Source: Collinsella aerofaciens (GTDB taxonomy: Bacteria; Actinomycetota; Coriobacteriia; Coriobacteriales; Coriobacteriaceae). Taken from it: a stretch of DNA of 64,000 nucleotides. Positions 16,753 to 63,937 of this stretch are shown here, one piece after another. Made by a program: the position numbers and the translations under genes. The stretch spans positions 17,703-81,702 of the forward strand of contig DBFBCB010000037.1 in assembly GCA_048246715.1 (NCBI GenBank). The letters run 5' to 3'. Under the pieces are notes generated by a model that was given only the letters and a program-made list of their open reading frames with translations, had not been told where the DNA came from and did not search any database. Position 1 is the first letter of the stretch. Each line of letters opens with the position of its first letter.

Positions 16753-16785
16753 TTTTTGAGTAACTATCAGTAAAAAGCTGCGAGC

Positions 16786-17670: not shown

Positions 17671-17766
17671 CGATCGCTCCTTCCGGGTGACTCTTATTTG
17701 TAATTCTACAGCATCCATTTGTTTTTCAAAGAATTTGACTGTCCTAAATAACATGCACTTTCGCTG

Positions 17767-17832
17767 CCTTGATTATCAACTTCATCCGAACACCTCCCAC
17801 ATTCATCCGCACATGTGCGGATGAATGTGGGA
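17767..17832. repeat. right 65-bp terminal inverted repeat (contains a 38-nt perfect palindrome at 17795-17832)
   Basis: TCCCACATTCATCCGCACA|TGTGCGGATGAATGTGGGA. The whole block is the reverse complement of 15096-15160 and runs straight into the IS30 transposase fragment. Confidence 0.8.
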
Positions 17833-18217
17833 ACCCGGTACCCTGAGGGCCGGACCGGCCGGCCCCGGGAGATCGGAGGACGGCCGGTCCGGAAAGAGGA
17901 AGAAGGGTTCCGCGGAGGCGGCCCCGAGGGCCTACGGCAGGCTCACCAGGCACGAGCGGGACACGGTCCAGAGGATGCTGGAGCGCAGGGCCTCGTGCAG
18001 GGAGATCGCCAGGGAGCTGGGCAGGTCGCCCTCGGCGGTGAGCGCCGAGGTGGCTTCGCACAGGTTCGTGACGGCGCCGAAGTCCAGGCGCGGCGAGCGC
18101 GTCGACGGCTCGGCCGACCTGTCGGCGGCCTGCCCGCGCCTGGCGGCGTGGCCGCGCTGCTGCAACGGGTGCGGCCGGTACCGTGCGATCGGCTGCAAGC
18201 GCCGCCCGCACGTATTC
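17833..18217 (+). pseudogene. IS30-family transposase, N-terminal fragment interrupted by an IS21 remnant
   Basis: HTH region LTRHERDTVQRMLERRASCREIARELGRSPSAVSAEV and a CPRL...CCNGCGRY...CKRRPHV cysteine motif. The reading frame resumes briefly after 19377. Confidence 0.7.
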
Positions 18218-19376
18218 TGTGTTTCGTCAAGAGGATTTGAGCAAAAAGAGCATCGGAAATTGAGCAGTCGCAGCATCGGAAGCGCGCACGCTTTTTGAGC
18301 GGCTAGCCCTCCTGCATGAGGGCATGGCGGACGCGGTAGGACTCGCCGCGGAACTGGACGAGCCTCCCGTGGTGGACGATGCGGTCGATCACGGCGGCGG
18401 CCATCTGGTCGTCCCCGAACACCGACCCCCACCTGCTGAACTCCAGGTTCGTGGTGATTACCACCGACTGCCTCTCGTATGCGTCGGCGAAGACCTGGAA
18501 GAGCAGCCTCGCCCCGTCCGCGTCGAGCGGGAGAAACCCGAGCTCGTCGATGACGAGCAGGCGGGCCTTGCCGATGAGCGCGGCCTCCCGGTCGAGCCTC
18601 CCGTCGTCGCGGGCGCGCCTCAGGCGCATCACGAGCGAGGACGCCGTGAAGAAGCGCGCCTCGAGCCTCCTCTCGCACGCCAGCGCGCAGAGGGCCGACG
18701 CCATGTGCGTCTTGCCGGTGCCGACGTCGCCCATGAGCACGAGGTCCTCCCTGCGCCCGACGAAGTCGAGCGCGAGCAGCGACTCGCGCCCCATGCCCTC
18801 CGGCCACGACACGGCCGACCAGTCGTAGCCGTCGAAGGTCTTGGGCGCCGGCAGCGCGCAGCGCCTGAGCAGCGTCGCGCGCTTCGAGGCCTCGCGGCTG
18901 GACCTCTCCGCCTCGAGGTAGCCCGCCAGGTACTCCACCTGCTTCGGGGTGCCGAGCCTCGACCACTCCTCCAGGACGGCGGTGGTGAGCGAGCACGACC
19001 GCCCGGCCTCCACGACCCTGCGGGCCAGCTCCTCGCTAGCTGCCATCGGCGACCGCCCCCTTCAGGAACCCGTCGTAGACCGACAGGTCGGCCCCGCCGG
19101 CCCCGCCGAGAGGGCGCGCGCAGAGAGGGGCGATGCCCCGCTGGCCTAGCCTAAGGGCGAAAACGGAATAGACGGACCGACCGTCCGGCTGAGTCTGGGA
19201 AGAGGTGCCGGGCGGCGGGCGGAGCATGGCCACCGGACCCATCGAAACACATCTCCACCGTTCCTTCAACTGGGAAAACGACGCCCCGTGGCCTGAATGG
19301 GGCCTCGGGGGCGTTCGGCTAACTGCGGGAACGGCCTATCCGCTCAATGTGTTCGGCTGAGATCGGAAATCAACCA
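18216..19376 (-). mobile_element. IS21-family element with internal istA deletion, nested in the IS30 remnant
   Basis: Both ends start with TG. A possible 4-bp TATT duplication flanks it. Only a fused N-/C-terminal stub of IstA remains (19036-19230), next to an intact istB. Confidence 0.7.
18303..19046 (-). CDS. istB: IS21-family helper ATPase IstB
   Basis: Walker A GDVGTGKTH, Walker B LLVIDELGF, and the TTNLEFSRWGSVFGD motif. Confidence 0.9.
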   Translation of the reverse strand: MAASEELARRVVEAGRSCSLTTAVLEEWSRLGTPKQVEYLAGYLEAERSSREASKRATLLRRCALPAPKTFDGYDWSAVSWPEGMGRESLLALDFVGRREDLVLMGDVGTGKTHMASALCALACERRLEARFFTASSLVMRLRRARDDGRLDREAALIGKARLLVIDELGFLPLDADGARLLFQVFADAYERQSVVITTNLEFSRWGSVFGDDQMAAAVIDRIVHHGRLVQFRGESYRVRHALMQEG

Positions 19377-19431
19377 TATTATGGGCACAGTCGGCATTTG
19401 GGTTGGATAGCCTCGCACCGGAGGAATCAAC

Positions 19432-19833
19432 ATGAGTACAAGTAGCTACAAACCGCAAAAAGGCCGTGGCCTCCCGTGGCCTTTAGACACGGACGCTCCA
19501 TCGGTTGCCGATCAGGCCGAGACGCCTAGCGAGATGGAGGCGGCGCTTGACGTTCGACAGGATGAGATTGCAAAGAGCGAGATCCTGAGTGGAATCAACA
19601 GGCCATCCTACGACTCATTATTTGCGGTCGCGAAGAATCGCGTCCAGCTTGCGATTCTGATCATGATTTGCTCCTTCCAGACGTCCAAAGGGCCTAATAG
19701 GAAGGATGCCAACGGAAAAGAACTTACAAAAGGTCTTTTCATGCGTCAGGACAAGCTCGAAAAAAAGTCTGTTCGACTCAACCGACTGTATCGAAAGCTC
19801 TGGGCGAGCTGGCTCATCGAGGCATCATCATGA
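19432..19833 (+). CDS. hypothetical protein
   Basis: RBS GGAGGA before the ATG. 133 aa with no recognisable domain. Confidence 0.4.
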   Translation: MSTSSYKPQKGRGLPWPLDTDAPSVADQAETPSEMEAALDVRQDEIAKSEILSGINRPSYDSLFAVAKNRVQLAILIMICSFQTSKGPNRKDANGKELTKGLFMRQDKLEKKSVRLNRLYRKLWASWLIEASS

Positions 19834-20862
19834 AGACCGATGGGGTGTGGGTCATCGTTTGGGCTCAGCTCGATATTCAAGCGCGTGAGGCCGGATGGGA
19901 TCCGCGCGCGGACGCGGACGGCGAGGTCGGACGTGAAAGCCGGACCGCAGAGGTATCGAGCGCACGCGGCCAGGGCCTCGAGGGCGCCTGGCGGGTAGGG
20001 AGATCCGAGCATGAGGCAGGACAACGCGCAGGCCCGCGAAAGGTTCACGAGCTCCCCCGCGACGCGGCTGGACCCTCGGCTGCCCCTCGTAAAGGATGCA
20101 GAAGACACGGTCGAGGTCCGACGGTTCGACCAGGCTGTACCGGCAGTCCGCGTACAGTGCGCAGCCCCTCCCGCGCGGGTCGCCGTCCGAGTCCTCATCC
20201 GGCTCATGATGGCGCACCTCAACCCAAAGGGCCTCCAACACGTCGTCGAACCCGAAATCGAGCTCCGCCTGGACGCTCTCGCCGAGCGCATCGCCCAGGG
20301 CGAGCTCCGGCACCTTCGTCACACGGCCGTCCAGCCACTCAATCTCTGTCATCGCGCGCATGGTGCAAGCCCCTTCCGACACGGGATTGTCAGCTCAACC
20401 CGACCCTTACCCATACGGACGAACATAACTCGCCAGGGGGAAGCCCCTGAAGGCCGTGCGCCACAACATGAGGCCGAATCCGCCCCCGGCTGGACAGGCC
20501 AACAACGAAGGAGCACACGGAACCGGCGCGGCGTTACAACCGTCCCGGCAAGCGTGTCACTTGGCCAAGTCATGATGCCGACAAACCCGGAAATGCTCCA
20601 ACGGAGCGCCGAACGAGCGTAACAATATAAAGCCGTGCAACACGTGTTGGACGACCGGAACATCCCAAACAAAGGCCTGTAGGTCCCACCTTCAAGCCCA
20701 ATAGCAAAATGTGCATCAGCGGATTTGCAGCGATACAAGTCTCAACCGTCACCATCACACCGCAGCGCGCCTAGTCCCACTCATCCTACTGCAAATGTCC
20801 CAGAACGAGAAAACGACCAGCTTAACATGCCAACCTTTATATCCGCACGCGCGTAATTCAAC

Positions 20863-21522: not shown

Positions 21523-21676
21523 TCCGCCTTAAATCAAGTATACGTTTTGGAACGGGATGTCACTCCGAACGCCTTACCCTCTTAGTGTGAATGCCGCTGC
21601 GGCATTGTTGACTCATCCTTAGTAATCGCGTCTATCCTCTGCAGCATCAGCCAAAGCAATCCGAGAGGAGCCGCAC

Positions 21677-22638
21677 ATGCATGCAGCGGAAATTCCTTTC
21701 GGGGGGTATCTCCCAGATTTACCCGCCGCCCGAAGGGGCAGTCGACAGTCGAGTACGTACTGATCATCGCGATCATCGTCCTGGTGGCGCTGATCGCGGG
21801 ACCGTGGGTCTCGTCGGCGATCACAAACCAGTTCAACACGGTGGCGGGGACGCTCGGCAACGGAATCTCAAAGGGGAGCTGGGAGTCGGGCGGCACGGGC
21901 GGCGGCAACGGGTCGTTGACCGACGCCGACATCGTGGACCCCGTTCACGGGATAGCGTTCGCCGTGTACTCGGAGGACGACCACAGCCTCATGTTCTACA
22001 AGCGCCGCGGGGTCCCCAGAGTCGGTGACATGCTCAACAGCCGCCGCGTGACGGCGGTGTATACGGGGTTCGAAAATGGATACGCCACCGCGACCGTGGG
22101 AAACGACGGCAAGACGACTGCCCCCTGGTGGCCTAACAGAAATAATATCGTGGCCGTAAAGGCCATTGACGATGGCATAGAAATCCACTCGTTGGCATTT
22201 TGCTTTCAGTACATGGAGAACTGCAAGAGCTTTGATCTGGCAAAGTTCGACATGTCGAACTGCACAAATCTGCAGCACGCATTCGCGTATTGCGGCAATG
22301 CGACTTCCTTCAGTATTTCAAGCTGGGATACGTCCTCGGTCGTCGAATTCGACTCGGCGCTCAAAAACCTTTACAAGGTCGAGGAGATTGACATCTCCGG
22401 ATGGTCGACGCGGAAAGCCGGCGATTTACGTCTCCTTTTTTCCACCGACAGTTCGCTGAAAAGCGTGAAATTTGGACCAGGGTGGAAGACCTCAGATGTT
22501 ATGGATATGCTCGGCATGTTTAGCTATTGCAAAAATCTAAACCTCGACTGTTCCGATTGGAATGTCCCAACCTATGCCAATCATAGTGACTTCAATCACT
22601 GCGCCCCCGGCGTTATCCTTCCGAAGGCGTGGCAGTAG
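21677..22638 (+). CDS. Flp-type prepilin fused to a BspA/DUF285-like leucine-rich-repeat domain; both ATGs are out of frame with the body (G6 tract). Phase-OFF or pseudogene.
   Basis: RBS GAGAGGAG, then ATGCATGCAG. The body frame reads GQSTVEYVLIIAIIVLVALIAGPWVSSAITNQFNTVAG. C-terminal repeats of the W-D/N-T/V-S...M..MF type. Confidence 0.6.
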
Positions 22639-22783
22639 GTCTGAAGAAACAAAACGGCAAGCAGTTTATGTGGCGCGGGCACCCGTGCCGCCGTTGCCTC
22701 AGCGGCACGTTACGGGCTAGTCGGTTCGATTTAACGTACGCTCTGCATGCAATATCAATCCCCATGCGAAGGGAGTGTCGCAT

Positions 22784-23786
22784 ATGCATGCAGCGGCAAT
22801 TAACCTTCGGGGGGTGGTTATCTCCTAGGAATACCCGCCTCCGAGGCCAAGGAGCCATCGAGTACGTTCTGGTCATCGCGATTATCGTCCTGGTTGTGAT
22901 GATAGCCGGCCCTTGGGTCTCGTCGGCAATCAGGAACCAGTTCAACACGGTGGCGGGAGTATTGGTAAACGGGACAGCAGGTGGGACTTGGGAACCGAGC
23001 GGTTCCGGCAGCGGTAACGGCGCGGGTTCCGCGACCGTCCAGGCGGCGCTCGCCAAGGACGCGAAGGACACGCGAAGGACTGGACCCTCGGTGAGCAGAA
23101 GGCAGTTGCCGAGGGCATCGCCGCCAAGGGCGAGGCGTCGCCCGCCTACGCCAAGGCGAAGGCCGCGATGGATGCCGGCACCGAGTTCTCGATGAAGCTC
23201 ACCGATGGCAAGACGCTGACTTACCGCATTATCGGCATCAATCATGATGACCCTGCAGGCGGATCCGGCAAGGCGGGCCTCACGTTCCTCACCACCACGA
23301 CGGGCATTTGGTCCCCCATGAACGCGATTGACACCAACGCCGGCGGTTGGGAGAAGTCTGAACTCCGTCAGAAAATGAACTCCGGCAAGATCTGGAATCT
23401 GATGCCCTCCGATTTCCAGTCCAAGGTGAAGGCCGTCAAAAAGCTATCGAACAATGTCGGGGGCGGTGATGAGAACAAGAACGCCGCCGTGACGGCTACC
23501 TCGGACAAGCTGTTCCTGCTCAGCTACTCTGAGATCGCCCCCCACCTCCTATTGGGCATCCTATCCCTGGACTTCCTCCGAGGGCACCCAGTACGAGGCC
23601 TTCAAAGGCAAGGTGACGGAGAACTATAATCCCAACTCTGCCATTGCCATTGGCAGCGGTTGGTGGGAGCGTTCGGTGTTTCCGAACGCCTCGAAGGGCT
23701 TCCTCCATGTCGACAGCAGCGGCAATCCGTCGGACAGCAACTCCGCGCCGGGCTGGTTTTGCGTCTCCCCCGCCTGGTGCTTCTAG
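22784..23786 (+). pseudogene. Flp-type prepilin fused to a DUF6273-like domain, multiply frameshifted
   Basis: The G6 tract puts ATG1 out of frame. There is an 11-nt tandem duplication at 23059-23080 and a second frameshift at the C6 tract 23538-23543. The restored reading ends in ...GWFCVSPAWCF. Confidence 0.75.
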
Positions 23787-23798
23787 CTTGTCTAGCGC

Positions 23799-23832
23799 AA
23801 AGCCCGCGTTACCCCGCGCGTGCTTTCTTTTG
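23799..23832 (+). terminator. rho-independent terminator after Flp-fusion copy 2
   Basis: AAAGCCCGCG ... CGCGTGCTTTCTTTT. Confidence 0.6.
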
Positions 23833-24048
23833 GCGACCGAACGAACGGCTTCAGGTTCATGGCACGGGTAGTCGGATTGAAGAGAAATGGGGTCATACAG
23901 CGGCTCTCAGAGCGCCTGCCGCACTCCCCCGCCATTACCTCTGCTGCGTCCTCGTATAGAGTCCATCCTGCTTGGTGTTTCGAGTTCGGGGCGTATACGG
24001 TGGGTGGATAATGGATTCACTTCGATGACGGCGTTTACGGGAGCGACC

Positions 24049-24276
24049 ATGGCGATGCGCGAGATCGCGGTCAAGTTCGATGAGGGCGAAATGGCCTTGA
24101 TTCAGGGCCATGCGGACGCCACGGGCATGACCTTTTCCGAGTTCGTGAGAAGGGCCGCGTTCGAGAAGGCTGAGGACATGGCGGACATCGAGGCCTACAA
24201 CGAGGCTTTGGACGGGGACGGCGGCACTCGCTACCCGATGGAAGAGGTCGTGCGCATGGCGGTGGAGGCTGAGTGA
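24049..24276 (+). CDS. ribbon-helix-helix antitoxin (RelB/DUF6290-like), apparently an orphan
   Basis: MAMREIAVKFDEGEMALIQGHADATGMTFSEFVRRAAFEKAEDMADIEAYNEAL. RBS GGGAG. No toxin ORF follows. Confidence 0.6.
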   Translation: MAMREIAVKFDEGEMALIQGHADATGMTFSEFVRRAAFEKAEDMADIEAYNEALDGDGGTRYPMEEVVRMAVEAE

Positions 24277-24563
24277 TTGTCCACACGCGTTGTCTGTCTC
24301 GGCTCTAAAGGCTTCTCTTGGGCGGGGTTCTGCTTATAGCCGGGTCCCGCTTTTTTGCGGCTTTCAGTTGTCTTTCTGAAGGTATGAAATGGCTGCCTCG
24401 ATATGAATACGGTCGGCATTCGAAGCGGACGTTATAGCCGCGCTAATAGCGCATGACTTTCTCCCCTGCCGTCATCGTTGCCGCAGCGGCAAGACCGTTG
24501 CAAATACTTGGAATAGCCCTACGCTCGGCTCGTATTGCAAACCCCGAGTGAAGGGAGCCGTAT

Positions 24564-25514
24564 ATGCATGCAGCGGCAATTAACCTTCGGGGGGGGGTCG
24601 CTCCTGAAACGACCCGCTTCCGAGGGCAATCAATTATCGAGTACGTCCTGATCATTGCCGTCATCGGCCTGGTCATCGTGTTCGCGGGACCCGGCGTGGC
24701 CGGAGCCATCCGAAACCAGTTCAACCTGGTCGGCAACACGGTGAACAATGGGACGGTCGGCGGCGTCGAGGGAGGCGCGTCCGGTGGCGGCTCCGCAGGC
24801 GCCGATTCCGCGGCCGTCCAGGTGGCCATCGCCAAGGACGCGAAGGACTGGACCCTCGACGAGCAAGAGGCGGTTGCCAAAGACATTGCCAAGAACGGTA
24901 CATCGTCTATCGCCTACGCCAAGGCCAAGGCCGCCATGGATGCCGGCACCAAGTTCTCGATGAAGCTGACCAATGGCAAGACGCTCGAGTACCGTATCAT
25001 CGGCATCAACCACGACGACTTGGCCGATGGTAGCGGCATGGCAGGCTTGACGTTCGAGGCGACCAACTCTGCCTTGGGTAGCCAGAGAATGAACGCTACG
25101 GACACCAATGCCGGTGGTTGGGATAAGTCCGAGCTCCGTACCCGCCTCAACAGCGGTGACCTCTGGTTGCTCCTGCCCAGCGAGCTCCAGTCAAAGGTGA
25201 AACCCGTCACAAAGACAACCGATAACGTTGGCGGTAACTGGGGCGGTGCCCCCTCAGCGACGACCGACAAGGTTTTTCTGCTCTCGGCAACCGAAGTATA
25301 CGGGGATATGCAATCTGACGGCATCCAGTACGAGTGCTACAAATCCAAGGGCGTGACGGGGTCGAACTATTCCGGTGCATCAGGCTATAGCCACTGGACT
25401 CGTTCCGTGAGACCGCGCAGCTCCACATCCTTTCGCTATGTTCAAAGCGGCGGTATTTGCTACAGCTACAGCGCGACGGACTCGTTTTATGTCCTCCCCG
25501 CTTTCTGCTTCTGA
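24564..25514 (+). CDS. Flp-type prepilin fused to a DUF6273-like passenger domain (the only in-frame copy)
   Basis: MHAAAINLRGGVAPETTRFRG|QSIIEYVLIIAVIGLVIV matches the G-x4-EY Flp/TadV cleavage motif. Gly-rich linker, then NAGGWDKSELRTRLN ... DKVFLLS ... HWTRSV ... PAFCF. Confidence 0.8.
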   Translation: MHAAAINLRGGVAPETTRFRGQSIIEYVLIIAVIGLVIVFAGPGVAGAIRNQFNLVGNTVNNGTVGGVEGGASGGGSAGADSAAVQVAIAKDAKDWTLDEQEAVAKDIAKNGTSSIAYAKAKAAMDAGTKFSMKLTNGKTLEYRIIGINHDDLADGSGMAGLTFEATNSALGSQRMNATDTNAGGWDKSELRTRLNSGDLWLLLPSELQSKVKPVTKTTDNVGGNWGGAPSATTDKVFLLSATEVYGDMQSDGIQYECYKSKGVTGSNYSGASGYSHWTRSVRPRSSTSFRYVQSGGICYSYSATDSFYVLPAFCF

Positions 25515-25527
25515 TCTCTTTCATCGC

Positions 25528-25562
25528 AAAGCCCCCGCAATCCTGCGAGGGCTTTTCTTTTG
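25528..25562 (+). terminator. rho-independent terminator after Flp-fusion copy 3
   Basis: AAAGCCCCCGCAATCCTGCGAGGGCTTTTCTTTT. Confidence 0.75.
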
Positions 25563-25982
25563 GCGATTACTCAAACAATTCGAGGTTCATTGTACAGGTA
25601 ATCGGGTTGAGGAGAAATGGGGTCATACAGCGGCTCTCAGAGCGCCTGCCGCACTTCCCCGCCATTACCTTTGCGGCATCCTCGTATGGAGTCCATCCTG
25701 GTTGGCGTTTTGTTGTAACCGCTCACTTGTCCACAGATCAAGTGAACTGCTGGAATAAATACAGCGACACACTAGTTCGTTACAGTCGCCATATCTGCGT
25801 AAATCGCCGCGATAAATACAGCCTGTAATCGTCTGTATACCAGCTACGCGTATGTAGATTCATGTCGCGTTAATAAATCGGCTCAAGCGCGTGCAAAACG
25901 CGCAAGTAACCGCAAAAAGCGATTATCGCGCAGGTAGATTTTTGGCACCCTGTTGCTTAATCAAAATTAAGCAATTGCTTAA

Positions 25983-26100
<118 letters not shown>

Positions 26101-50477: not shown

Positions 50478-51833
50478 TCATTCGATGGGAGTCACGTGCA
50501 TGGAGACGATGCGGAACAAGCCGTCGTCCCAAACCACGTAGTTGCTGTACGTCTTGCTGCCGTAGTATTTGATTCCGTCGATGCCGGCATGACGGCAGCA
50601 TTGGGCGACGAAGTTCGGCACGAGGTACTCCGGCGGGATGACCTGGTCGGTGTTGGTGAATGGGAACCGAAGGTACTTCAGGAAGTAGTTTGTCCCGCGG
50701 CCCACGCCGGAAAGGCTGATGAGGCGGACGTCGCGCCTGCCCTCTATCTCGGCGACCTGGGCCTCGTCCCCCGAACCGTGCTTCCCAATCTCCTGCATCG
50801 CGCCGTGCTCTGTGTCGGAGAAGTAGTAGTAAGCCTTCTGCGGGCCGTTAAACCTTCCCGCTTTCACAAGTAGGCGGGGCGCTTTGACCATGTCGTCCTT
50901 AAGGTACGAGGCCGTCCCTGCGGGTTTCAGCCGAGCGTGGTAATAGACCGGGCTGTCGAACGAAATCGCATCCCTCCAGTCCCGAACCGTCTCCCAGATA
51001 AGCCTACCGGCCTTGCAATCCCTTGCGAAGGCGGGGTCATCCGAGCAAAGCTGCTGAAGCTTCATCATGTCAACCTCGGTCAGCCCCTCAAGGAAGGACA
51101 GGGACGAGGTCAGGACGTTGAACGAGCGAACGCTCGCGGACACCACGCCGAAATCATCGCCGACGCAATTGCAGGGCCCGGGGTCCGTCTCGGCGTCCGC
51201 CGCAAGCAGCCTCTTTCCCCTGATGTCGACCGAGACATCCTCGCTAACGGAGAGCCGCTCGAGCGAGACCTTGCTGAGGTTCTTCACGAAGGTCTTGGTA
51301 CCACGCGGTATCGAGCCGCCGTAGCCGAAATCTCCGAGGGAATCGACAAGCCCGCCGACATTGCCAAGGAGGGCGATGTCGGGACCCCTGACGGTCAGCC
51401 CAGAAAGGCTGCTGGCAAGGCTCTCGTAGACGCCGAAGTAGTCTTTAGACGCAAAGCGGTCCGCCATGTCCCGAATGGCGGGGGTCTGGAGCGAGGCCGT
51501 ACATGCCGCAAGAAGTTCTTGCTGGGCGGAAACAACCTTCATGACCTCGGAAGCTCGATAGGAAGAGAGCCAGCCGCTGGAGTTGATGGAATCGAGGACC
51601 GCACGAATGGAGTCGAGGCGGACGCCCGCCGTAATGGACTTGATGCTGTCAACAAAAGTCACGAGGGCCGGCGCCATACTAGCGCAAACCGCCTCGGACG
51701 TCTTATGCATCATCTCGGTATATGCGACGGACTCGCTCAGGGCCTTCGCCATGCTGAGCCGCATCGCCTCCGACTCGCGCAGTGCCTCTGAGAGGTCCGT
51801 GCGGGCGGATGCAGAATCCTCGCCAGCCCTCAT
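50478..51833 (-). CDS. RES-domain protein with a long N-terminal extension
   Basis: C-terminal AGRFNGPQKAYYYFSDTEHGAMQE ... GIKYYGSK fits the R/E/S signature. About 270 aa of unassigned alpha-helical N-region. Confidence 0.6.
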   Translation of the reverse strand: MRAGEDSASARTDLSEALRESEAMRLSMAKALSESVAYTEMMHKTSEAVCASMAPALVTFVDSIKSITAGVRLDSIRAVLDSINSSGWLSSYRASEVMKVVSAQQELLAACTASLQTPAIRDMADRFASKDYFGVYESLASSLSGLTVRGPDIALLGNVGGLVDSLGDFGYGGSIPRGTKTFVKNLSKVSLERLSVSEDVSVDIRGKRLLAADAETDPGPCNCVGDDFGVVSASVRSFNVLTSSLSFLEGLTEVDMMKLQQLCSDDPAFARDCKAGRLIWETVRDWRDAISFDSPVYYHARLKPAGTASYLKDDMVKAPRLLVKAGRFNGPQKAYYYFSDTEHGAMQEIGKHGSGDEAQVAEIEGRRDVRLISLSGVGRGTNYFLKYLRFPFTNTDQVIPPEYLVPNFVAQCCRHAGIDGIKYYGSKTYSNYVVWDDGLFRIVSMHVTPIE

Positions 51834-52486: not shown

Positions 52487-53932
52487 TCAGCCCCTACCCG
52501 TTGCCTTGTTAATTTTCCTATACATCTTGGAAACATGGCCACTAATGGGATCATTCGGAAACGCCTTCTGAGCTCTTGCAACATATGAAAGATAGTTTCC
52601 ATGGTGGCTTGGGTCCGAAGTGCCTCGCTTGTCACTCGATCTGTTCCCCTTCGGAGAGTAATGCTCGTACAATGCGCTTACGCGCTTTTTACTCGGATGC
52701 TTGTCCGGATTATCGGCCAGCCTGCCGATTGATTTAGCAGCACGATAAAACCTGCTGTAAAACCTGCCGACCGTAGATTGGCGAATTCGGACATCTTTAC
52801 CGTCAAAATCAAATCCCAAAAACGAAACATGATTTCCAGCATGATGCGCGGTTCGCACAACTTCCATTTCTCCTGCGAGCAATGCACCAAGTGAAAGTTG
52901 CTCGACCCTCCCATCGTTTACACGGTGGATTTTGGTCTTTTCATCTTGTAGTTCAACTGCAGGAACTCCCTGTGCCAAAGCAAGTGCATTGCTTGCTGTT
53001 TTGAGATCCTTGGCTCGGACGATAATGATGAAGTCATCGCAATATCGTATATACCTGCCATTCACGCTGGCAACACACGCGTTAATCTGGGCATCGATAT
53101 CAAACATATACATGTTCGCCAAGACGCCACTTGTTGCCAGCCCTTGGGGGATGCCCCTCGCATCATGACTTCTTTTCCAAGGCACAACAATCGAAGAACC
53201 CTTGTAAGCCGAAAACTCCGCAGGTGTCAAGATGCGCGGTAGCCTGTTAAGACTCCTTAACGCCTTGGATCGAACTTTGGACGCAGAATCGCCAAACGTG
53301 AACGGGTCGTCTGGCTGAAGATCAATCCAGCCAAGCCCATTCCTTCTCGCTAAATCGCCAACAGGCCAATAACAGTAATGCAATATGTTTTTCAGGACTT
53401 GGTAATGGTCCGGTGGAAGCACGCCCTCGTTAAAGAATCCTCTAACGGCCTTGCGTAAGTAACTATGGTCAAGGTTATCGAAAAAGTGGGTGAAGTCTCC
53501 CGTGATAACTAGCGAATCCCCCTGCCCGCGAATGGCATCGATTGCATCTGCAGCAACAGAGCAATTAGTGAGGTGAAATCCGCTTCGATAAGCCGTAGCA
53601 ACACTGCCGATACCAGTTTCTAAGGCACGACGGTCATATAACTTGCCCCATTGCAGCGCATAATACTGAAAAATCCTATGATCCAAGTGAGATGCATATG
53701 CGATATCTCTCGTCTTCAGGATCTTCTTACCGTCCCTGAATCTCACATGGCAAAGCGTATTCGCAATCAAGGGAAGAAATGCGTGACGCTGAATAAAATC
53801 TACGTCACAAACCCTCGCCTCGACATCCTTGAATGCGACACGGTAATCGAAATGCGCGTAGCTCTTCTTTATCGCATACCCTGGAATACGAGGCGGGTCG
53901 AAATCGTCCACGGGCTCACCGCCTTTAATCAA
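52487..53932 (-). CDS. reverse transcriptase, UG/Abi-type (defence-associated RT candidate); not retron- or group-II-like
   Basis: RT motifs ITGDFTHFFDNLDH (A), GIPQGLATSGVLANMYM (B) and YIRYCDDFIII (C; YCDD at 53033-53044), plus SFLGFDF. No maturase, endonuclease or other fused domain. TTG/GTG start. Confidence 0.85.
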   Translation of the reverse strand: MIKGGEPVDDFDPPRIPGYAIKKSYAHFDYRVAFKDVEARVCDVDFIQRHAFLPLIANTLCHVRFRDGKKILKTRDIAYASHLDHRIFQYYALQWGKLYDRRALETGIGSVATAYRSGFHLTNCSVAADAIDAIRGQGDSLVITGDFTHFFDNLDHSYLRKAVRGFFNEGVLPPDHYQVLKNILHYCYWPVGDLARRNGLGWIDLQPDDPFTFGDSASKVRSKALRSLNRLPRILTPAEFSAYKGSSIVVPWKRSHDARGIPQGLATSGVLANMYMFDIDAQINACVASVNGRYIRYCDDFIIIVRAKDLKTASNALALAQGVPAVELQDEKTKIHRVNDGRVEQLSLGALLAGEMEVVRTAHHAGNHVSFLGFDFDGKDVRIRQSTVGRFYSRFYRAAKSIGRLADNPDKHPSKKRVSALYEHYSPKGNRSSDKRGTSDPSHHGNYLSYVARAQKAFPNDPISGHVSKMYRKINKATGRG

Positions 53933-57567: not shown

Positions 57568-58647
57568 TTATGGTTTCCAAACGCTTAGCGTGTCTGGAAG
57601 CTCATTTATTTTATTGTCAGCAACCACGAAGCCAACGCTGAACCTCGCCCTAGTAATTGCAACATAGAGCTTGGAGCGCGTCTGCGGCTTCAGATCCGTT
57701 GAAGCGTCTTGCAACCAAGAGGCCATATCGGCAACTGGATAAATCAGAACATGGTCATATGTTCGGCCTTTTGCTTTGCCGAAGTTGCAGACCAATGAAG
57801 CGTTCGCGGTCTGAGTGGCGACGCTATGTCTCAAAATCACTGGATCCAAAAACTCGCAATACTTTTGTGCAAGTGACTTTGGAATAGCCCAAACTCCATT
57901 ATGGGTTTCATTTGAAGCGGCACACAAAGATTCGGTTGGTGGGAACTCCGGATAGACCATGTTTGCGAATTCGATGACGCTCTTAGAGCAACGATGCGTT
58001 CCGTTGAGAGTCGCGCGATCTATCTCGCAGAGCGACGTAAGCTTCTTTTTCTCGATATATTGCTCGAGGCTCAGACCCTTGTTCTTGTTTCCAGCATTGG
58101 TGCGATAGGTTGACTGCCTCTCATCGCCGCACATGACTACGGGCATGCCAGAGGATAGAAGCGCGGCGATAAAGTCATAGTCGTATCCGGCCATATCTTG
58201 TATTTCATCGATGAGCACAACGTCGAACAGCTCCTTGATCCTTTCGATAACCGCTCCGAAACTGCATTCATTGCATTTCAGCGCAAGCGCTGGAAGTTTG
58301 GCCGCATAAATCTCTTTCGATTTATTACAGTAATAACGAAGGGTTCCTTTCTTATAGAAATTCCTTCCTTCAGGATTCAGGTCAACCCCGCTGAATTTCT
58401 CTTTACCGAAGCCCGCAGCGCCTTGGAAAGGACGCACTCCGTGCTCAAGAAGGAAGGTGAACCACGGGAGTACAGTGATGTTGGAAGGGATGCAGCCATA
58501 CTTCTGATAAATCATCTCCTTCGCCACCGCCGAATTTTCATCCGTAAAGGTGGTGTAAAGGATTTTTTGATCGGCATCCGAAAGACTATTGATTAAGAAT
58601 GTGGTTTTTCCTGAGCCGGCAGCAGCTAAATAGATCTTAGATTTCAT
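57568..58647 (-). CDS. gajB: UvrD-like SF1 helicase-family protein, GajB-like (short)
   Basis: Walker A AAAGSGKTT, DEIQD box, and motif VI YVAITRAR. 11-nt overlap with the upstream OLD gene. Confidence 0.75.
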   Translation of the reverse strand: MKSKIYLAAAGSGKTTFLINSLSDADQKILYTTFTDENSAVAKEMIYQKYGCIPSNITVLPWFTFLLEHGVRPFQGAAGFGKEKFSGVDLNPEGRNFYKKGTLRYYCNKSKEIYAAKLPALALKCNECSFGAVIERIKELFDVVLIDEIQDMAGYDYDFIAALLSSGMPVVMCGDERQSTYRTNAGNKNKGLSLEQYIEKKKLTSLCEIDRATLNGTHRCSKSVIEFANMVYPEFPPTESLCAASNETHNGVWAIPKSLAQKYCEFLDPVILRHSVATQTANASLVCNFGKAKGRTYDHVLIYPVADMASWLQDASTDLKPQTRSKLYVAITRARFSVGFVVADNKINELPDTLSVWKP

Positions 58648-60310
58648 CTAATTCGCCTCGCACCCAAGCAATGGTTTGCATTATGTATTCCGGATACGAC
58701 AAGGTTTCCACCGAATCAAATATCTTGAGCGCGACCTCTGTCTTGTTTTCCTCCATATACTTGAGTGCGGAATCTCGATCCTTGAACTCTTTGCCCAAGA
58801 TTTTCGACAGCATTTCAGCGCCAATCGATTCGTACATCTCTGCTTCAAGCGTGTTGTAGTTGATTCCCTCCATGCTGCCCTTTTCAAGAAGCCTATTTGC
58901 GTACGAGACGACTTGCAGTTCATCTTCTTGAGCTAGGGTTACATACTTGTAGCCTTGATACTTCTTTTCCAGTGCCCCAATGTTTCCATCGTTGTCGGTC
59001 ATGGCGATAACCCTCTTATTGATCACCTCTGCAACTTCAAGGAATCGAAGGAAGCTTGTTCCGACGGAAATGACATCGACACCATCCTGAATTGGAAGTT
59101 TTCCATCGGAGGCATTCATATATGCGCGCTGGACAACGAGCTCGTCAGCATCTCCCTCGACGAGAATAGCGGTATCGCACAGAAGAACCCTCAATGTCTT
59201 GTATCCAGGGGCCTTCATGAAGAACCTAGAGGTATCCTCGCTCAGGTCTCTCATCGAGGCAGAATTACCTCCGTTGAGAAGGATCAAGTTCCTAAGCTCG
59301 AGCTTGTTTGCAACGAAGCTGCTATGTGTCGTGATGATTAGCTGAACCCCCTCACATCGGCTCTTCACGCCCTCAAGGAACATATTCAACCTAGTATGTG
59401 AAAGATGGTTCTCGGGCTCTTCAAGCAATACCACGTTGCCGCCACGCTTTTCGCTCTTTGCCAAAGCGAGCTCTGTGCTGACGATGCTTTTGGTTCCATC
59501 TCCTACGTTGGAGAATGGAATATCCTCAAGTTTGGTGATGACTCCATTTTCCCAGGAGTTTACTGTGCCCGCTTCGAACCCAAACGTTACAGCCTTATTC
59601 GTGAGACTCTTTGCTCTTTCGGAAATCTTTTCATTTATACTTTTGACGGTTTGGTCGGCGGAAAAGCCAGTGCGCATTCTTCTATGCACTTGCGATATGG
59701 CTATCTGATCGGATCTTTCCAGCACGTCTCTTGCAATTCTTGTCACTATCGCTTTCGAACCAGGCCAAGCAAGAGAATTGCCAGCGCCAACTAGTGCCGA
59801 CTTGAACTTGATGCCAGCAGGGCGGATGCTCTTTCTGGCAAATGTCGTCCATGAGCATGCGTAGTATTCGATAGGTAAACCATGGTGTGATTTCGCGGCA
59901 ACAAAGTCTTGGTACTCATCGGAAAAAGACTCTGCGTCTATGGCGATATCTAGCTTGATTCCAGATTCAGCGACACCGCGACTATTAAAGTCGCCCTTAT
60001 AAAGAGCAACTGTGTCCTCTTCGCCGGAAAATACCACCTCGATAACAATGCTCGGAGGATTGCAAGGCTTTCCGTTCTTCAGCAGGCAAAGATACTCGTC
60101 AACGATATCCTTGTTAAAGAGATCCTCGGAAATGCTCCTCATCAGCGGAGCTCCTCGATATTGACCATCGATTACTGCTGTTACCGCCTCAAGCAGCGTC
60201 GACTTTCCAGAATCATTATCTCCAACGACAATGTTTATTCCTTCGGAAAACGAGATGCTCGCCTCGCGAAATCTCTTAAATCCAAATACCCTGAGCTCTT
60301 TTATATGCAC
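58637..60310 (-). CDS. gajA: OLD-family ATPase + TOPRIM endonuclease, GajA-like (Gabija)
   Basis: GDNDSGKST Walker A, LLEEPENHLS, ITTHS, and TOPRIM ILVEGDADE ... AMTDNDGN. GTG start after GGTGGA. Confidence 0.8.
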   Translation of the reverse strand: MHIKELRVFGFKRFREASISFSEGINIVVGDNDSGKSTLLEAVTAVIDGQYRGAPLMRSISEDLFNKDIVDEYLCLLKNGKPCNPPSIVIEVVFSGEEDTVALYKGDFNSRGVAESGIKLDIAIDAESFSDEYQDFVAAKSHHGLPIEYYACSWTTFARKSIRPAGIKFKSALVGAGNSLAWPGSKAIVTRIARDVLERSDQIAISQVHRRMRTGFSADQTVKSINEKISERAKSLTNKAVTFGFEAGTVNSWENGVITKLEDIPFSNVGDGTKSIVSTELALAKSEKRGGNVVLLEEPENHLSHTRLNMFLEGVKSRCEGVQLIITTHSSFVANKLELRNLILLNGGNSASMRDLSEDTSRFFMKAPGYKTLRVLLCDTAILVEGDADELVVQRAYMNASDGKLPIQDGVDVISVGTSFLRFLEVAEVINKRVIAMTDNDGNIGALEKKYQGYKYVTLAQEDELQVVSYANRLLEKGSMEGINYNTLEAEMYESIGAEMLSKILGKEFKDRDSALKYMEENKTEVALKIFDSVETLSYPEYIMQTIAWVRGELDEI

Positions 60311-60765: not shown

Positions 60766-63150
60766 TCACGTCCTCCTGCTATTTCGCCTCCAATGCGCAA
60801 GGAGCCTACCAGCTTCTTCAGCAGAGACCTCGTTCCCACCATCATCGTCTCTATTCGCAACGCAGAAAGCTGCCGCAACCAGCTGGTAGTCTTCCGGCAA
60901 CTCGAAAAAGCTGCCGTCTGCGCGCGCCTCAGTAAGAAGACCGTCGATCTTTGCGAGCTCGACCACCCTTGCGACACCAGCCTTATCGAATGAGAAGCTC
61001 GTTACTTCGCCGCTGTCAAGCGAGGTGTAGCGCCCCGACCCGAACGAGAGAAAAGACGCGCACCCCGCCCCGTCAACGTTGGCAACCCTTTTCGCATAAG
61101 CCATGAATTCATTGGGTTTACACTCTTTGAGCAAGATCAACGCATAATGACACTCATCGTCTAGGAACAGGTTCCTCGTGGCGGCGTCCTCGATCACCTT
61201 GGCGCAAACGGCATCGGAAAGCTCGAAAATGTCGCCTTCGGGCAAAAGCGTCTTGCAGCCACCGTCTCCCCTGTCATTCAGGCTGTTCAGCTGCGATATC
61301 AAGAAAGGCGTGAGCGGACAGATCACTCTCCCCTGGCTCTCGTCCACCGACGCTCGCAGAATCTCGCCAGACTTAGCAGGCCCCAACTGTTTGAACAGCA
61401 ACTCGATGAGTCTGAGGAGTTCCAGGTCGGCACTCGTCGAGGCCAAAGGGGCATAGTGCTTTTCCTTGCTCAGACCCAAGGCCAAAAGGCACGCTTTGGC
61501 GACGACTTCGGCACGTCCTTCCTCCAACGTCGATACGCGGGCCCTCATGGCCGACACAAAGTCAATCATGCTACCCGCTTCGGCGTGCCTGCGCAGGTCT
61601 TCGAGCAGCACTCCGCCCTCGCTCACATTCAACGCATCCTGTACCTCGTGAACATCGATTCCGTCCGGCATGTTCGAATGGAAGTATAGATCGAAGGAAT
61701 CGGCCCGCCAGATAGCGTTCAAGGTCTCCCTCGAGTAAGAGACGCAATGACTCGTGCCAGTTATATTTGCCACCCGCGGGAAAAGCCTGCAGACGGCCTC
61801 GACCGCCCACTTGGCCTCAGAGCTCGGGACTATCCCAGAAAACAGCTTCTCCAAATTGGCGAGGCTGTCTTTCGGATCCATGTTATTCATATACAACGAA
61901 GATCCGATCGTGCCGCAAAGGAGGTCCTTGTGCACGCGAATCCAATCAACGAGCTTTGGCACCTTGAGCTCCAGCACCGCCAAGGCGACGACGTCCTCGA
62001 AGCAGCAGAATCGCGGCAGGATGCTTAACTTCGCCTTTAACGCGTTCGAGAAGCGCCGAACCTCCCTTATGGTGAAGAACCGATTGTTCAGAAACGTCAG
62101 GCAGACGCCGTTCCACCTCTTGTCGTCAAGATCCTCCCGCCTGTAGGCAAACGCCTCAAAAATCGCGTTAATGTCCTTGAGAAGCATCCGCTCCAAATCG
62201 CCCGATGAAATGGACGGCAGGCGCACAGGGACCTGGACTACCTTCTCCAGGTATTCAGCGCCATCGCACTTCTGGACCTCACTTAAAGCCCGCGTAACCA
62301 CCTCCTCATCGAAAGAAAGAAGGTAGTTTATCTTGGGAAGCTTCGCCAGAGAGGCGACGAGCTGAAACACCATACGCACCTGGTCGTTCGGCAGCCGATC
62401 GATGTCATCGATGATCACTACGACTCGCCCATCGAACTTGAGGAGCTCCTCCTCAAGTCTCTGTTTCTTCGAGGAGACGCTTCCCGCCCTAACTGCGGAT
62501 TTCCTCAACCTGCTCGTCAAACGATTGCCGAAGGCGGGCACAGCAACGCCCGCAAGCGGCATGCCCGCCAAACTGGCAGCGGCGCCGGCGGTCATCAACA
62601 AGGCTTCAGAATATGCCGCGAAGGCATTGAGGACCTCGGGGCGCTTAGCGCGCAACTTTCCGAATAGCTTGCGCCGCCCATGTGCATCTTTATCAAGCGC
62701 ACTCCCGACTTCCTTAAGGAACTGAGCGAGCAGCTGCTCGGCCGTGAGGTAATTCCAGGGCTCAAAACGGACGACAGAGACGCCCGCCTTTTCGTCATCG
62801 TCTTTTCGGGAGAGCGCATTTTCAACGAGGTTTATAACCGAAGTCTTGCCTGATCCCCAAGGTCCATACAAACCAATGACAAGCGACTCGGGCCCAGCTG
62901 CGGATTTCAGAATATCAGCCAGTCTCTCAGCGAAAGGGATCCTTCCGATAAGATCTTGCTCCCTCACCTTGATTGGTGTATCGGTGGCAAGAGATAGGTT
63001 GGGGTTATCCAAGGCCACTACCTCCCCAGTTCGTAGCTGCGCACGGCGGCCTCGGAAAGCCGCATTTTCTCTGTCAGGTCGAGCTGCGTCATTTCCAGCT
63101 CCTGGCATCTTCATCTGTTCTTTGTTCCGAAGCTGGCTCCCACAATACAC
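60766..63150 (-). CDS. KAP-family P-loop NTPase
   Basis: GLYGPWGSGKTS Walker A, a hydrophobic insert (LLMTAGAAASLAGMPLAGVAVPAF), and VVIIDDIDRL Walker B. The start codon is uncertain (GTG 63150 or ATG 63114). Confidence 0.8.
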   Translation of the reverse strand: MYCGSQLRNKEQMKMPGAGNDAARPDRENAAFRGRRAQLRTGEVVALDNPNLSLATDTPIKVREQDLIGRIPFAERLADILKSAAGPESLVIGLYGPWGSGKTSVINLVENALSRKDDDEKAGVSVVRFEPWNYLTAEQLLAQFLKEVGSALDKDAHGRRKLFGKLRAKRPEVLNAFAAYSEALLMTAGAAASLAGMPLAGVAVPAFGNRLTSRLRKSAVRAGSVSSKKQRLEEELLKFDGRVVVIIDDIDRLPNDQVRMVFQLVASLAKLPKINYLLSFDEEVVTRALSEVQKCDGAEYLEKVVQVPVRLPSISSGDLERMLLKDINAIFEAFAYRREDLDDKRWNGVCLTFLNNRFFTIREVRRFSNALKAKLSILPRFCCFEDVVALAVLELKVPKLVDWIRVHKDLLCGTIGSSLYMNNMDPKDSLANLEKLFSGIVPSSEAKWAVEAVCRLFPRVANITGTSHCVSYSRETLNAIWRADSFDLYFHSNMPDGIDVHEVQDALNVSEGGVLLEDLRRHAEAGSMIDFVSAMRARVSTLEEGRAEVVAKACLLALGLSKEKHYAPLASTSADLELLRLIELLFKQLGPAKSGEILRASVDESQGRVICPLTPFLISQLNSLNDRGDGGCKTLLPEGDIFELSDAVCAKVIEDAATRNLFLDDECHYALILLKECKPNEFMAYAKRVANVDGAGCASFLSFGSGRYTSLDSGEVTSFSFDKAGVARVVELAKIDGLLTEARADGSFFELPEDYQLVAAAFCVANRDDDGGNEVSAEEAGRLLAHWRRNSRRT

Positions 63151-63175: not shown

Positions 63176-63937
63176 TTAGAAATCCATTTTATTAAAATCG
63201 ATGGAATATCCCATTGACTTGAGTTCTTTCAAAAGGCCGAACTCCCAACTGTCTGTTCCGGTATAAACGACGCCCTGTAGATCGGAGGGAATCTCGATAC
63301 CTTTGTCAACAAGAATTGCAACGTTTTCCCTGCCAAGCCGACCAATAAAGTATCCGGCTTCAAATACAACATTCTGTCTAGCCCTGGGATTTGCCGACTG
63401 TTCTGCCTTGGCCCTTCCTTCGTCGTCCGCCGTAAAAAGGCATACCGCTCCTGCTGCATCGCCTTCAATTTCCAGCTTTTCGATGATTGTCTTGCCCTGA
63501 TTTGACTGCTCGTTCAGGACTACCGCCGTCAGGCCCTGCCTTTCGATGATTCTCGCGACCCTTTCTCTAAGCTCTCCGTTGTGGCCATGAACGATAAATA
63601 CCTTCGAATAATCTCCGACATTTGCAGTCGATCCGGTTTCCCCTTCGGCTGAAAACTCATCAAGGTATGTCTCCAGCACAGCTTTTGCTTTGCGCAGGCC
63701 GTCCGCACAGGCATCAGCAAAAGCCGATTTGGGCGTGCCGGGGGCGAAATAAGACAACGAATAGCTGATTTCGTTAAAACTTTTAAATTCGTAGCTGTCT
63801 TCTCCAAACCGCCTAATTAAAAGCCTGTCCGCCCTTGTCTTCCATGCTTTAAAGTCAGGCGAACTAGAGCGGATGTATTTCTTTGAAAGATCGTCTGCTG
63901 TTTCGCACAACTGTTGCAAAATTTCAAAATCAGACAT
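63176..63937 (-). CDS. TIR-like (pfam10137 / CAP12-PCTIR-type) nucleotide-binding protein with a helical N-domain
   Basis: VFIVHGHNGELRERVARIIE ... GKTIIEKLE ... CLFTADDEG ... RARQNVVFEAGYFIGRLGRENV ... PSDLQGVVY. Confidence 0.7.
   Translation of the reverse strand: MSDFEILQQLCETADDLSKKYIRSSSPDFKAWKTRADRLLIRRFGEDSYEFKSFNEISYSLSYFAPGTPKSAFADACADGLRKAKAVLETYLDEFSAEGETGSTANVGDYSKVFIVHGHNGELRERVARIIERQGLTAVVLNEQSNQGKTIIEKLEIEGDAAGAVCLFTADDEGRAKAEQSANPRARQNVVFEAGYFIGRLGRENVAILVDKGIEIPSDLQGVVYTGTDSWEFGLLKELKSMGYSIDFNKMDF

Follow-up and report, generated by a model that had tools for sequence, protein, structure and literature searches.

To our knowledge, Flp pilins are the smallest pilins known and lack a globular domain, and the binding specificity of Tad pili is an open question. 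A cluster of three genes in a 64,000-nucleotide stretch of Collinsella aerofaciens DNA (assembly GCA_048246715.1, contig DBFBCB010000037.1, forward-strand positions 17,703 to 81,702; hereafter the window) raises that question anew, as each pairs a complete Flp pilin module with a large passenger domain. C. aerofaciens is among the most prevalent human gut species and has repeatedly been linked to disease states, and the Tad pilus is the main pilus type in gut actinobacteria such as Bifidobacterium and Collinsella. What, then, do these genes encode? Our favored reading, which we hold to be somewhat probable, is that they are phase-variable modular Flp pilins, in which an Flp module, a linker and a binding passenger would be displayed via a Tad pilus and switched by a poly-G tract. 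Behind it stand the domain architecture, the homology to Flp pilins, the adjacency of related genes to tad genes elsewhere, a hypermutable tract and a hypervariable patch, all of which we observe. Modular pilins and contingency loci are each known; here they are combined, and the locus is not categorically new.

The three paralogous genes lie on the same strand at 21677-22638, 22784-23786 and 24564-25514 and are referred to as copies 1, 2 and 3. An earlier note on this DNA, written from its letters alone, had described a family of three fusion genes, and the paralogues are where it placed them; copy 1, however, is phase-OFF, copy 2 is a pseudogene, and only copy 3 is intact. The start region ATGCATGCAGCGG is common to all three and, as that note had read, follows a GGAG-type Shine-Dalgarno sequence; the spacing is 6-8 nt. 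Within ATGCATGCAGCGG are two ATG codons (ATG1 and ATG2) four bases apart, which open different frames, and a poly-G run follows 24-25 nt past ATG1 (G6 at 21701, G6 at 22809, G9 at 24589); the tract and the dual ATG, the dominant feature of the locus, had been overlooked. The likeness of the copies is not due to chance, since their 5' modules are 72-80% identical at the DNA level over 107-163 nt. Three-frame translation gives the same order in each, G-Q-x-x-(V/I)-E-Y, a hydrophobic helix and a Gly-rich stretch, with GQSTVEYVLIIAIIVLV, GQGAIEYVLVIAIIVLV and GQSIIEYVLIIAVIGLV as the strings that hold the G-x4-EY site and helix, so that these elements and the Gly-rich linker stand as described before. 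A leader ending in R-G, claimed for all, is found in copy 3 (R20-G21), whereas the true leader of copy 1 ends in K-G. The features of the three genes are as follows.

21663..21683, + strand: copy 1 translation start, with the Shine-Dalgarno sequence GAGAGGAG at 21663-21670, ATG1 at 21677 and ATG2 at 21681, one frame apart (sequence)
21677..22638, + strand: copy 1, fusion gene of an Flp module (from the Gly codon at 21736) and DUF285 (about 22192-22560), a PARCEL or BspA-like leucine-rich repeat (LRR) domain; phase-OFF (Pfam, NCBIfam)
21701..21706, + strand: copy 1 poly-G tract, G6, within the leader-peptide coding region; slippage hotspot, OFF at this length
22784..23786, + strand: copy 2, fusion pseudogene of an Flp module and DUF6273 (three-frame translation, repeat families)
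23059..23080, + strand: 11-bp tandem duplication in copy 2 (ACGCGAAGGAC twice, units 23059-23069 and 23070-23080), a frameshift; copy 3 has a single unit, 24838-24848
23538..23543, + strand: C6 run where copy 2 is frameshifted a second time; an intact relative in contig L007 reads through the equivalent site
24564..25514, + strand: copy 3, intact prepilin-fusion gene of 316 amino acids (aa) in the ATG1 frame (open reading frame, ORF)
24589..24597, + strand: copy 3 poly-G tract, G9, read from ATG1
24624..24755, + strand: copy 3 Flp module, with the predicted cleavage-site Gly21, mature Q22-S-I-I-E26-Y27, the helix and the remaining mature Flp (homology to tad-operon Flp)
24756..24944, + strand: copy 3 Gly-rich linker and predicted helical spacer (sequence; helices at residues 80-127 in a low-confidence AlphaFold2 model)
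24945..25511, + strand: copy 3 DUF6273 passenger, predicted C-type-lectin-like (Pfam match at residues 173-315, 25080-25508)
25410..25499, + strand: hypervariable patch of the copy 3 DUF6273 domain, residues 283-312 (column entropy; variable regions of phage diversity-generating retroelement targets map here)

Is the N-terminal module truly a pilin? Using BLASTP, copy 3 aligns with P0236, an 85-aa Flp encoded in a Collinsella tad operon (58% identity over 57 aa, E 2e-21). The aligned stretch begins just ahead of the cleavage-site Gly and extends to the C-terminal end of mature Flp; by hand count of that alignment, about 30 of the 43 mature positions are identical (~70%). The N-terminal 65 aa thus correspond to a whole Flp pilin, and the earlier claim of a full Flp prepilin joined to a passenger holds. 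A search with the first 80 residues against 1.84 billion representative proteins returned 113 clusters, among them many fusions of 280-1374 aa, Collinsella proteins of 75-93 aa, and classical Flp pilins of 57-82 aa (E ~1e-4), and a family profile matched the solved Tad pilins 8u1k and 8u2b of the PDB (Protein Data Bank) weakly. The Flp-type prepilin-peptidase motif G/xxxxEY followed by ~20 hydrophobic residues is present as GQSIIEYVLIIAVIGLVIVFAG in copy 3 and in equivalent form in copies 1 and 2. R20, G21, Q22 and Y27 are invariant among the homologues and E26 nearly so (at least 90%), and the N-module as a whole is better conserved than the passenger. Because the homology spans the whole Flp and the module is conserved throughout, we take the carrier to be an entire Flp pilin and not a mere class III signal peptide. 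Some copy 3 homologues carry a precomputed PF04964 (Flp_Fap) match, and Pfam gave no match to the TadE-like domain (PF07811) in the fusion proteins of the window at E values up to 1.

How the genes are read out depends on the poly-G tract, and we compared the window with 16 related contigs from different samples, anchored on copy 3 and on an antitoxin-like protein encoded beside it, to give 17 loci. The cluster occupies a conserved chromosomal site, with a DUF1648 membrane-protein gene on one side and tRNA-Pro and coaBC on the other in 16 of 16 related contigs, and the type strain has a related version of it at the equivalent site. Across the 17 loci copy 1 has substitutions in merely 20 of about 1070 alignment columns, and its tract ranges from six to ten residues (6 G in three loci, 7 in one, 8 in one, 9 in seven and 10 in five), the single 7-G locus (L001) having an IS110 element inserted exactly at the tract. 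Which ATG opens the Flp frame, if either does, depends on tract length together with a linked TATCT or TGT variant, and full-length ORFs of 319-337 aa are present in 5 of the 17 (L002, L005, L006, L011 and L014); a secondary C4/C3 slip is found in four loci. In the window the Flp frame of copy 1 is in phase with neither ATG, as ATG1 leads to a 28-aa ORF and ATG2 to a 115-aa out-of-frame ORF, and the earliest start codon in the Flp frame is a GTG within the helix; the earlier translation of its Flp module from the common start therefore fails.

Copy 3 behaves differently, in that both of its tract states are ON. Fourteen loci have G9 and are read from ATG1 with the leader MHAAAINLRGG..., and three have G10 and are read from ATG2 with the leader MQRQLTFGGG.... 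With two overlapping starts in different frames, two thirds of tract lengths are productive and the remaining third is OFF. Since the Gly residues encoded by the tract precede the predicted cleavage site, one and the same mature protein is to be expected from either ON state. Copy 3 is full-length in 16 of the 17 loci, and its 316-aa product in the window, already noted as in-frame, is encoded by an intact ORF at 24564-25514. It shares 76% identity with COLAER_02101 (C. aerofaciens ATCC 25986) and has homologues in 2308 clusters at 90% identity (E up to 1e-3); the exact protein is indexed in 72 contig-collection blocks. The GpsA encoded in the window matches exactly proteins that bear the name Collinsella or C. 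aerofaciens. In copy 2 the Flp frame is accessible from ATG2 only and is then broken by the 11-bp duplication and by a frameshift at the C6 run, leaving an identical truncated 135-aa ORF in 17 of 17 loci, and its tract (22809-22814) is interrupted by a T (G6-T-GGG). Copy 2 is also a chimera, its 5' part resembling copy 1 and its 3' part copy 3 (repeat families D2/D4 versus D1/D6), which is direct evidence for module exchange by recombination. The present state in the window is thus copy 1 OFF, copy 2 dead and copy 3 ON.

The tract is not confined to this locus. Family members in the databases use all three leader frames, many of them being frameshift-truncated, and the tract is kept in paralogues adjacent to tad operons (G10 and G7). 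In the type strain a DUF285-type fusion has G12 in the complete NCTC genome (L151, 4148-4159) and G11 in the ATCC 25986 draft (L152, 4149-4159); over 17 kb the two assemblies have three internal differences, the tract and two 1-nt indels, which in the draft interrupt a housekeeping gene, and because the older draft has these other indel errors the tract difference is merely a hint. Within the window there are eight G/C runs of at least six, three of which are at the shared leader position and one at the copy 2 frameshift, and the G9 of copy 3 is the sole run of at least seven. A homopolymer (G6-G12) in the 5' coding region that sets the frame, with length polymorphism among near-identical strains, is what contingency genes present, and in these alignments the tract carries the signature of a hypermutable, reversible contingency locus.

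Two other explanations of these length differences need to be weighed. One is that they are assembly or sequencing artefacts and that expression is constitutive; homopolymers are error-prone, several of the loci come from long-read assemblies, and the ATCC 25986 draft has its further indels. However, Illumina short-read scaffolds by themselves cover the full range in copy 1 (6, 7, 8, 9 and 10 G) and give both 9 and 10 G in copy 3, from which we conclude that an artefact is unlikely. Moreover, tract lengths co-vary with the linked substitutions of the TATCT and TGT haplotypes, the remaining homopolymers of the 1-kb gene are almost invariant, and proteins in all three leader frames have been deposited from many sources; in sum we rate this explanation as quite improbable. 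The other is that the cluster is decaying, a set of remnants of duplicated surface-protein genes in which the frameshifts are ordinary pseudogenization. The 11-bp duplication and second frameshift of copy 2 in every locus, the OFF or broken state of copy 1 in 12 of 17, and the insertion sequences within the locus in L001 and L009 would all be expected of it. It does not, however, account for a copy 3 that is full-length in nearly every locus, for the strong conservation of the N-module among its thousands of intact homologues, or for copy 1 indels that cluster at one tract, where varied lengths restore ORFs via either ATG as in a reversible contingency locus; and the interrupted tract in the dead copy 2 fits a loss of selection for switching. 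We see very little chance that decay explains the locus.

What, then, do the pilins carry? The passenger assignments of the earlier note stand, and the HMMER check that it proposed bears them out. DUF285 (PF03382) is found in copy 1 with E 2.5e-22 and 79.3 bits (cut-off 25), where the NCBIfam PARCEL repeat (TIGR02167) scores 25.8 bits, just under its cut-off of 30, and DUF6273 (PF19789) is found in copy 3 (1e-15, 58.4 bits) and in a repaired copy 2 (6e-11, 42.9 bits), where 23.5 is the cut-off. Elsewhere in the fusion family, which spans 288-1374 aa in the database, there are members with PKD/Ig stalks, LRR_5 or BspA-type LRRs, or DUF285 and DUF6273 together, in proteins of up to 1374 aa. A search of PDB sequences with the passenger found nothing, matches being limited to the Flp module and the low-complexity linker. 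The linker itself varies: the copy 1 orthologue of L014 (about 1770-1870) has a 48-bp in-frame tandem duplication in the Gly-rich linker that yields a 337-aa protein, and linker length is therefore plastic too.

DUF6273 has been described as a C-type-lectin-like fold that serves as the scaffold of targets of phage diversity-generating retroelements (DGRs), with the variable region at the C-terminus (PMC10743442, PMC11792537), and the fold we ascribe to it here is taken from the first of these (PMC10743442). In 106 Collinsella homologues of copy 3, the column entropy of residues 283-312 is 1.5-2.1 bits versus 0.2-0.9 elsewhere, and this hypervariable patch is rich in N, D, Y, S, G and H. One explanation is that the genes are DGR targets whose variable C-terminus a reverse transcriptase would rewrite, using a template repeat. 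The documented role of the domain, the matching position of the variation between Collinsella lineages and a reverse transcriptase gene 27 kb away all invite this idea; nevertheless, blastn of both 3' ends against the 64-kb window found no template repeat, the reverse transcriptase (52487-53932) is a DRT2 defense enzyme (E 7e-109), and the 3' region of copy 3 has 0-1 differing positions among the 17 strains, the patch being invariant in this lineage. We give this explanation next to no credence, and for this lineage the absence of a template repeat from the window, the identity of the enzyme and the invariant patch refute it. As the patch is constant among the 17 strains and no DGR was found in the window, the diversity is between lineages.

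The same domain is found on phages. About 45 gut phage contigs (IMG/VR, L105-L150, genomes of ~35-44 kb) encode DUF6273 domains 33-37% identical to copy 3 residues 145-316, and these genes lie in tail modules, beside genes for tail proteins, tail fibers and Hoc-like proteins and upstream of an endolysin gene (for example L108, 5770-6519). No template repeats were found within 6 kb of the phage homologues. The level of identity and the tail-module setting indicate that the pilin passenger and the phage receptor-binding domains share ancestry, and to judge from this kinship the ligands of so phage-tail-like a lectin passenger may be bacterial or mucosal glycans.

If these proteins are pilins, a Tad machine would assemble them. 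Collinsella tad operons are present in contigs L007, L018-L021 and L024, two of them named C. aerofaciens, with the order Flp (one or two genes), A24 prepilin peptidase, TadE, two TadF/G-like pseudopilins, RcpC/CpaB, CpaF, TadB and TadC. In two independent contigs a fusion paralogue lies 2-3 kb upstream of the operon, a 332-aa DUF6273 type in L007 and a 288-aa DUF285 type in L018 (C. aerofaciens GCA_902501405.1). This type 1 operon is flanked by JetD (Wadjet), about eight conserved genes without a Pfam match, and HNH and HTH genes, with ArdC in L007 (1-20258). A second, divergent tad operon type (L022-L023), whose CpaF is 60% identical, has as its neighbors a SpaA-type sortase pilin, a sortase, DNA methylases and a restriction-alleviation gene; both in the Flp of this operon and in the longest fusion proteins, position -1 is occupied by Ala. 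The island-like neighbors, the small CpaF cluster and the CpaF scan described below suggest that the tad operon belongs to the accessory genes of Collinsella, and the Tad machine may move with integrative or conjugative elements.

A number of results weigh against the reading of the genes as phase-variable modular Flp pilins. The Flp_Fap model (PF04964) gives sub-threshold matches to the N-termini, that of copy 3 with E 8e-4 and 19.5 bits, under its cut-off of 32.2. Pfam and the precomputed annotation reveal no tad/cpa genes in the 64-kb window, as the earlier note had stated, and no A24 peptidase gene, and the location in a tad locus usual for Flp genes is seen only for the paralogues in L007 and L018. 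The 90% cluster of the Collinsella CpaF contains 1138 distinct sequences versus 8169 and 22986 for two core genes, and a CpaF scan of 185,579 species genomes (GTDB) gave one Collinsella genome with a close CpaF among the matches listed, which is not decisive. The tad operons are in island-like settings, whereas the fusion genes are at the conserved coaBC/tRNA-Pro chromosomal site, and with an accessory operon and fusion genes at a core site many carriers of the fusion genes may lack the machinery. AlphaFold2 models of copy 3 have a predicted local distance difference test score (pLDDT) of 38 at full length (25 sequences) and 45 for the passenger only (106 sequences); these models, too poor for comparing folds, reflect alignments that are too shallow (70-99% identity). 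Finally, part of the variation in tract length was read from long-read assemblies or old drafts, in which homopolymer errors are possible.

These results lead to what we regard as the main rival, for strains without the tad island, namely that the Flp-like N-terminus is a pilin-derived anchor without a pilus. It would act as a Sec or signal recognition particle (SRP) signal-anchor, or be cleaved yet remain unpolymerized, and hold the passenger at the membrane or wall, in the manner of archaeal class III signal-peptide proteins that function outside filaments; phase variation would still apply. Such an anchor would account for fusion genes at a core site with an apparently accessory operon and for a window free of tad genes, and it agrees with the sub-threshold match of the Class_IIIsignal model to the N-termini (4.8e-5 in copy 1), which scores about equal to Flp_Fap. 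It asks less of the module than the module offers, however. The entire mature Flp is kept at its high identity to the tad-operon pilin, and a Gly at -1 with (nearly) invariant Glu5 and Tyr6, in a module conserved above the passenger, exceeds the needs of a plain anchor. In addition, paralogues adjoin the tad operon, and a spacer of ~60 aa would seem unlikely to take a domain through the actinobacterial wall. We consider the anchor, in either form, unlikely.

A plausible route to display by modular Flp pilins can be outlined. The protein comprises a short basic leader, a complete Flp of the type IVc (Tad) class with the G/xxxxEY site, a Gly-rich helical spacer and a predicted ligand-binding passenger, a BspA-like LRR domain (DUF285) in copy 1 and a putative C-type-lectin-like DUF6273 in copies 2 and 3. 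It would be inserted in an SRP/Sec-dependent manner with its N-terminus in the cytoplasm and its C-terminal passenger outside, and a TadV-type A24 peptidase would cut after the Gly, removing the leader along with the Gly residues encoded by the tract. The Flp module would then admit the protein to the Tad pilus, likeliest at the tip or sparsely along the shaft, and the passenger would be exposed outside the cell wall, as an adhesin whose ligand is a glycan or a protein. The hypervariable loops at the C-terminus of the lectin-like domain would determine strain-specific binding, and slippage would choose the repertoire of displayed adhesins stochastically.

A broader version of this model, of which we are less than convinced, is that the chromosome holds a phase-variable wardrobe of Flp-fusion adhesins (lectin-like, LRR and Ig-stalked) that are polymerized by a Tad machine on a mobile island. 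Were it true, acquisition of the island would at once arm the cell with strain-specific sticky pili, and two firsts would follow: a major-pilin-type Flp that serves as the carrier of grafted binding modules and, in a dominant gut actinobacterium, a homopolymer contingency system.

Several further features lie around and between the genes.

23796..23980, + strand: copy A of the 3' flank repeat, with a terminator-like hairpin at 23805-23820 and about 160 nt more (terminator scan, repeat comparison)
24049..24276, + strand: small ribbon-helix-helix / DUF6290 antitoxin-like gene (Pfam DUF6290 1.6e-14, NikA-like 3.3e-7)
25525..25710, + strand: 3' flank repeat copy B, 83-85% identical to copy A

The flank repeats are a direct repeat of ~185 nt after copies 2 and 3 with the hairpin at its beginning, found, within the loci compared, at this locus only. 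It is probably a 3' flank duplicated along with the gene and, less probably, a small RNA or regulatory site. A structured RNA or riboswitch in the intergenic repeats was considered and rejected, as an Rfam scan matched only tRNA-Pro and had no match for these repeats, and the 185-nt repeat folds like its shuffles (z +1.3). A promoter scan upstream of the genes found nothing convincing. GC-rich palindromes of the type GCCGC(N)GCGGC lie 70-90 nt before each start (21592-21612, 22683-22710 and 24471-24491), and the motif GCAGCGGCA recurs inside the start region; they may act as an operator or else terminate the preceding unit. The DUF6290 antitoxin-like gene between copies 2 and 3 is an orphan without an obvious toxin partner. 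It is kept in every related locus, including that of the type strain, and its exact 75-aa protein is found in 4577 contig-collection index blocks, far above the pilin genes.

The cluster is bounded on the right by tRNA-Pro (26024-26100, - strand) and on the left by a region (16600-20500) with a truncated IS21 helper gene, IstB (18303-19046, - strand), and several ORFs with low G+C content at third codon positions (GC3) and no family match, which look like remnants of mobile DNA. Insertion sequences strike the locus repeatedly, with an IS110-family element at the copy 1 tract in L001 (5572-7200) and, in L009 (1800-3200 and 5659-6117), an IS3-type element (rve) inside copy 2 and an IS200 element (Y1 transposase) past copy 3. 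A defense island occupies 44336-63937, in which several neighboring ORFs have low GC3 and no family match.

50478..51833, - strand: RES-domain protein
52487..53932, - strand: DRT2 reverse transcriptase (PADLOC E 7e-109)
57568..58647, - strand: Gabija GajB
58637..60310, - strand: Gabija GajA
60766..63150, - strand: PifA-like KAP NTPase
63176..63937, - strand: PDC-S35 TIR protein

The locus suggests a simple answer to the question of Tad binding specificity, a family of more than 2300 clusters at 90% identity in which a whole Flp carries lectin-like or LRR domains. It would extend the principle of the grafted module from type IVa pili to the Tad class, and the poly-G/dual-ATG switch together with the hypervariable loops would give strain-specific, stochastically expressed colonization factors. 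Our literature search turned up no account of Flp-fused pilins, of pili that bear DUF6273 or DUF285, or of homopolymer phase variation in Collinsella.

The closest parallels are the modular type IVa pilins PilB, with a vWA domain, and PilC, with a lectin domain, of Streptococcus sanguinis (Raynaud et al. 2021, PMC8179133; review PMC10191384). The Collinsella fusions share with them a pilin module, a linker and a domain that is not pilus-specific, the composition by which modular type IV pilins are recognized, and in both cases an N-terminal pilin bears a grafted adhesive domain (putatively adhesive in Collinsella) in a monoderm host with a proposed tip site, one of the two S. sanguinis modular pilins likewise having a lectin-type passenger. 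They differ in that PilB and PilC are globular type IVa pilins with the IPR012902 motif, processed by PilD, whereas the Collinsella carrier is a minimal all-helical Flp of ~45-50 aa of the Tad (type IVc) class, with the Flp-type G/xxxxEY in place of the G/FxxxE of the IPR012902 N-methylation motif; phase variation has not been reported for PilB or PilC. The earlier note was aware of no Tad or Flp pilins with grafted modules, and the global survey of modular pilins covers IPR012902 pilins only and makes no mention of Flp or Tad. That statement must nonetheless be narrowed, as large Tad minor pilins of the TadG/KilN kind, with C-terminal modules and interchangeable tips, have been published for the Kil system of Myxococcus (Herrou et al. 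2025, PMC12075869), albeit not of the Flp type. There too a Tad-type pilus is customized by pilin-like proteins with variable C-terminal modules, and paralogous sets have different target ranges. TadG and KilN, however, are pseudopilins of the TadE/F/G type with a beta-stranded fold that form heterotrimers from kilLMN triplets, while the Collinsella proteins use a major-pilin (Flp) sequence as carrier, are encoded by single genes, and have DUF285 or DUF6273 passengers and a poly-G switch; they fall outside the TadE/TadF/TadG class, and genuine TadE-like proteins have genes of their own in the Collinsella tad operon.

With the phage DUF6273 proteins, the DGR targets and 'tentaclins' (PMC10743442, PMC11792537), the fusions share a Pfam domain and C-terminal variability, yet they are attached to a pilin and not to a tail or Ig-like stalk, the Collinsella locus has no DGR, and the variation is between lineages. 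In common with the canonical Flp/Fap pilins (Flp1 of Aggregatibacter and PilA of Caulobacter; PF04964) they have the G/xxxxEY site, the hydrophobic helix and a C-terminal amphipathic part, but they depart from the small Flp plan (~50-90 aa without a globular domain) with 288-1374 aa in the family and, in the window, 316-320 aa with a passenger of 190-250 aa; in the window they also lie outside a tad operon and score under the Pfam cut-off. As for the switch, the Neisseria pilus adhesin PilC undergoes poly-G phase variation in its leader region, and lic1 of Haemophilus influenzae has a multi-ATG repeat switch. As in those systems, the repeat is in the leader or 5' coding region and alternative starts make more than one length ON, but here the host is a gut actinobacterium and Gram-positive, what is switched is a gene for a pilin fusion, and the tract lies within a leader that is predicted to be cut off. 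The thin pilus of R64 offers a last comparison, in which the PilV tip adhesins are varied by a shufflon. Both systems place alternative C-terminal binding segments (predicted ones in Collinsella) on a type IV minor pilin, through a stochastic DNA switch and with pilus genes on mobile elements (possibly so in Collinsella); R64 does so by site-specific inversion on a type IVb pilus with unrelated passenger folds, and Collinsella would do so by slippage, on a Tad pilus.

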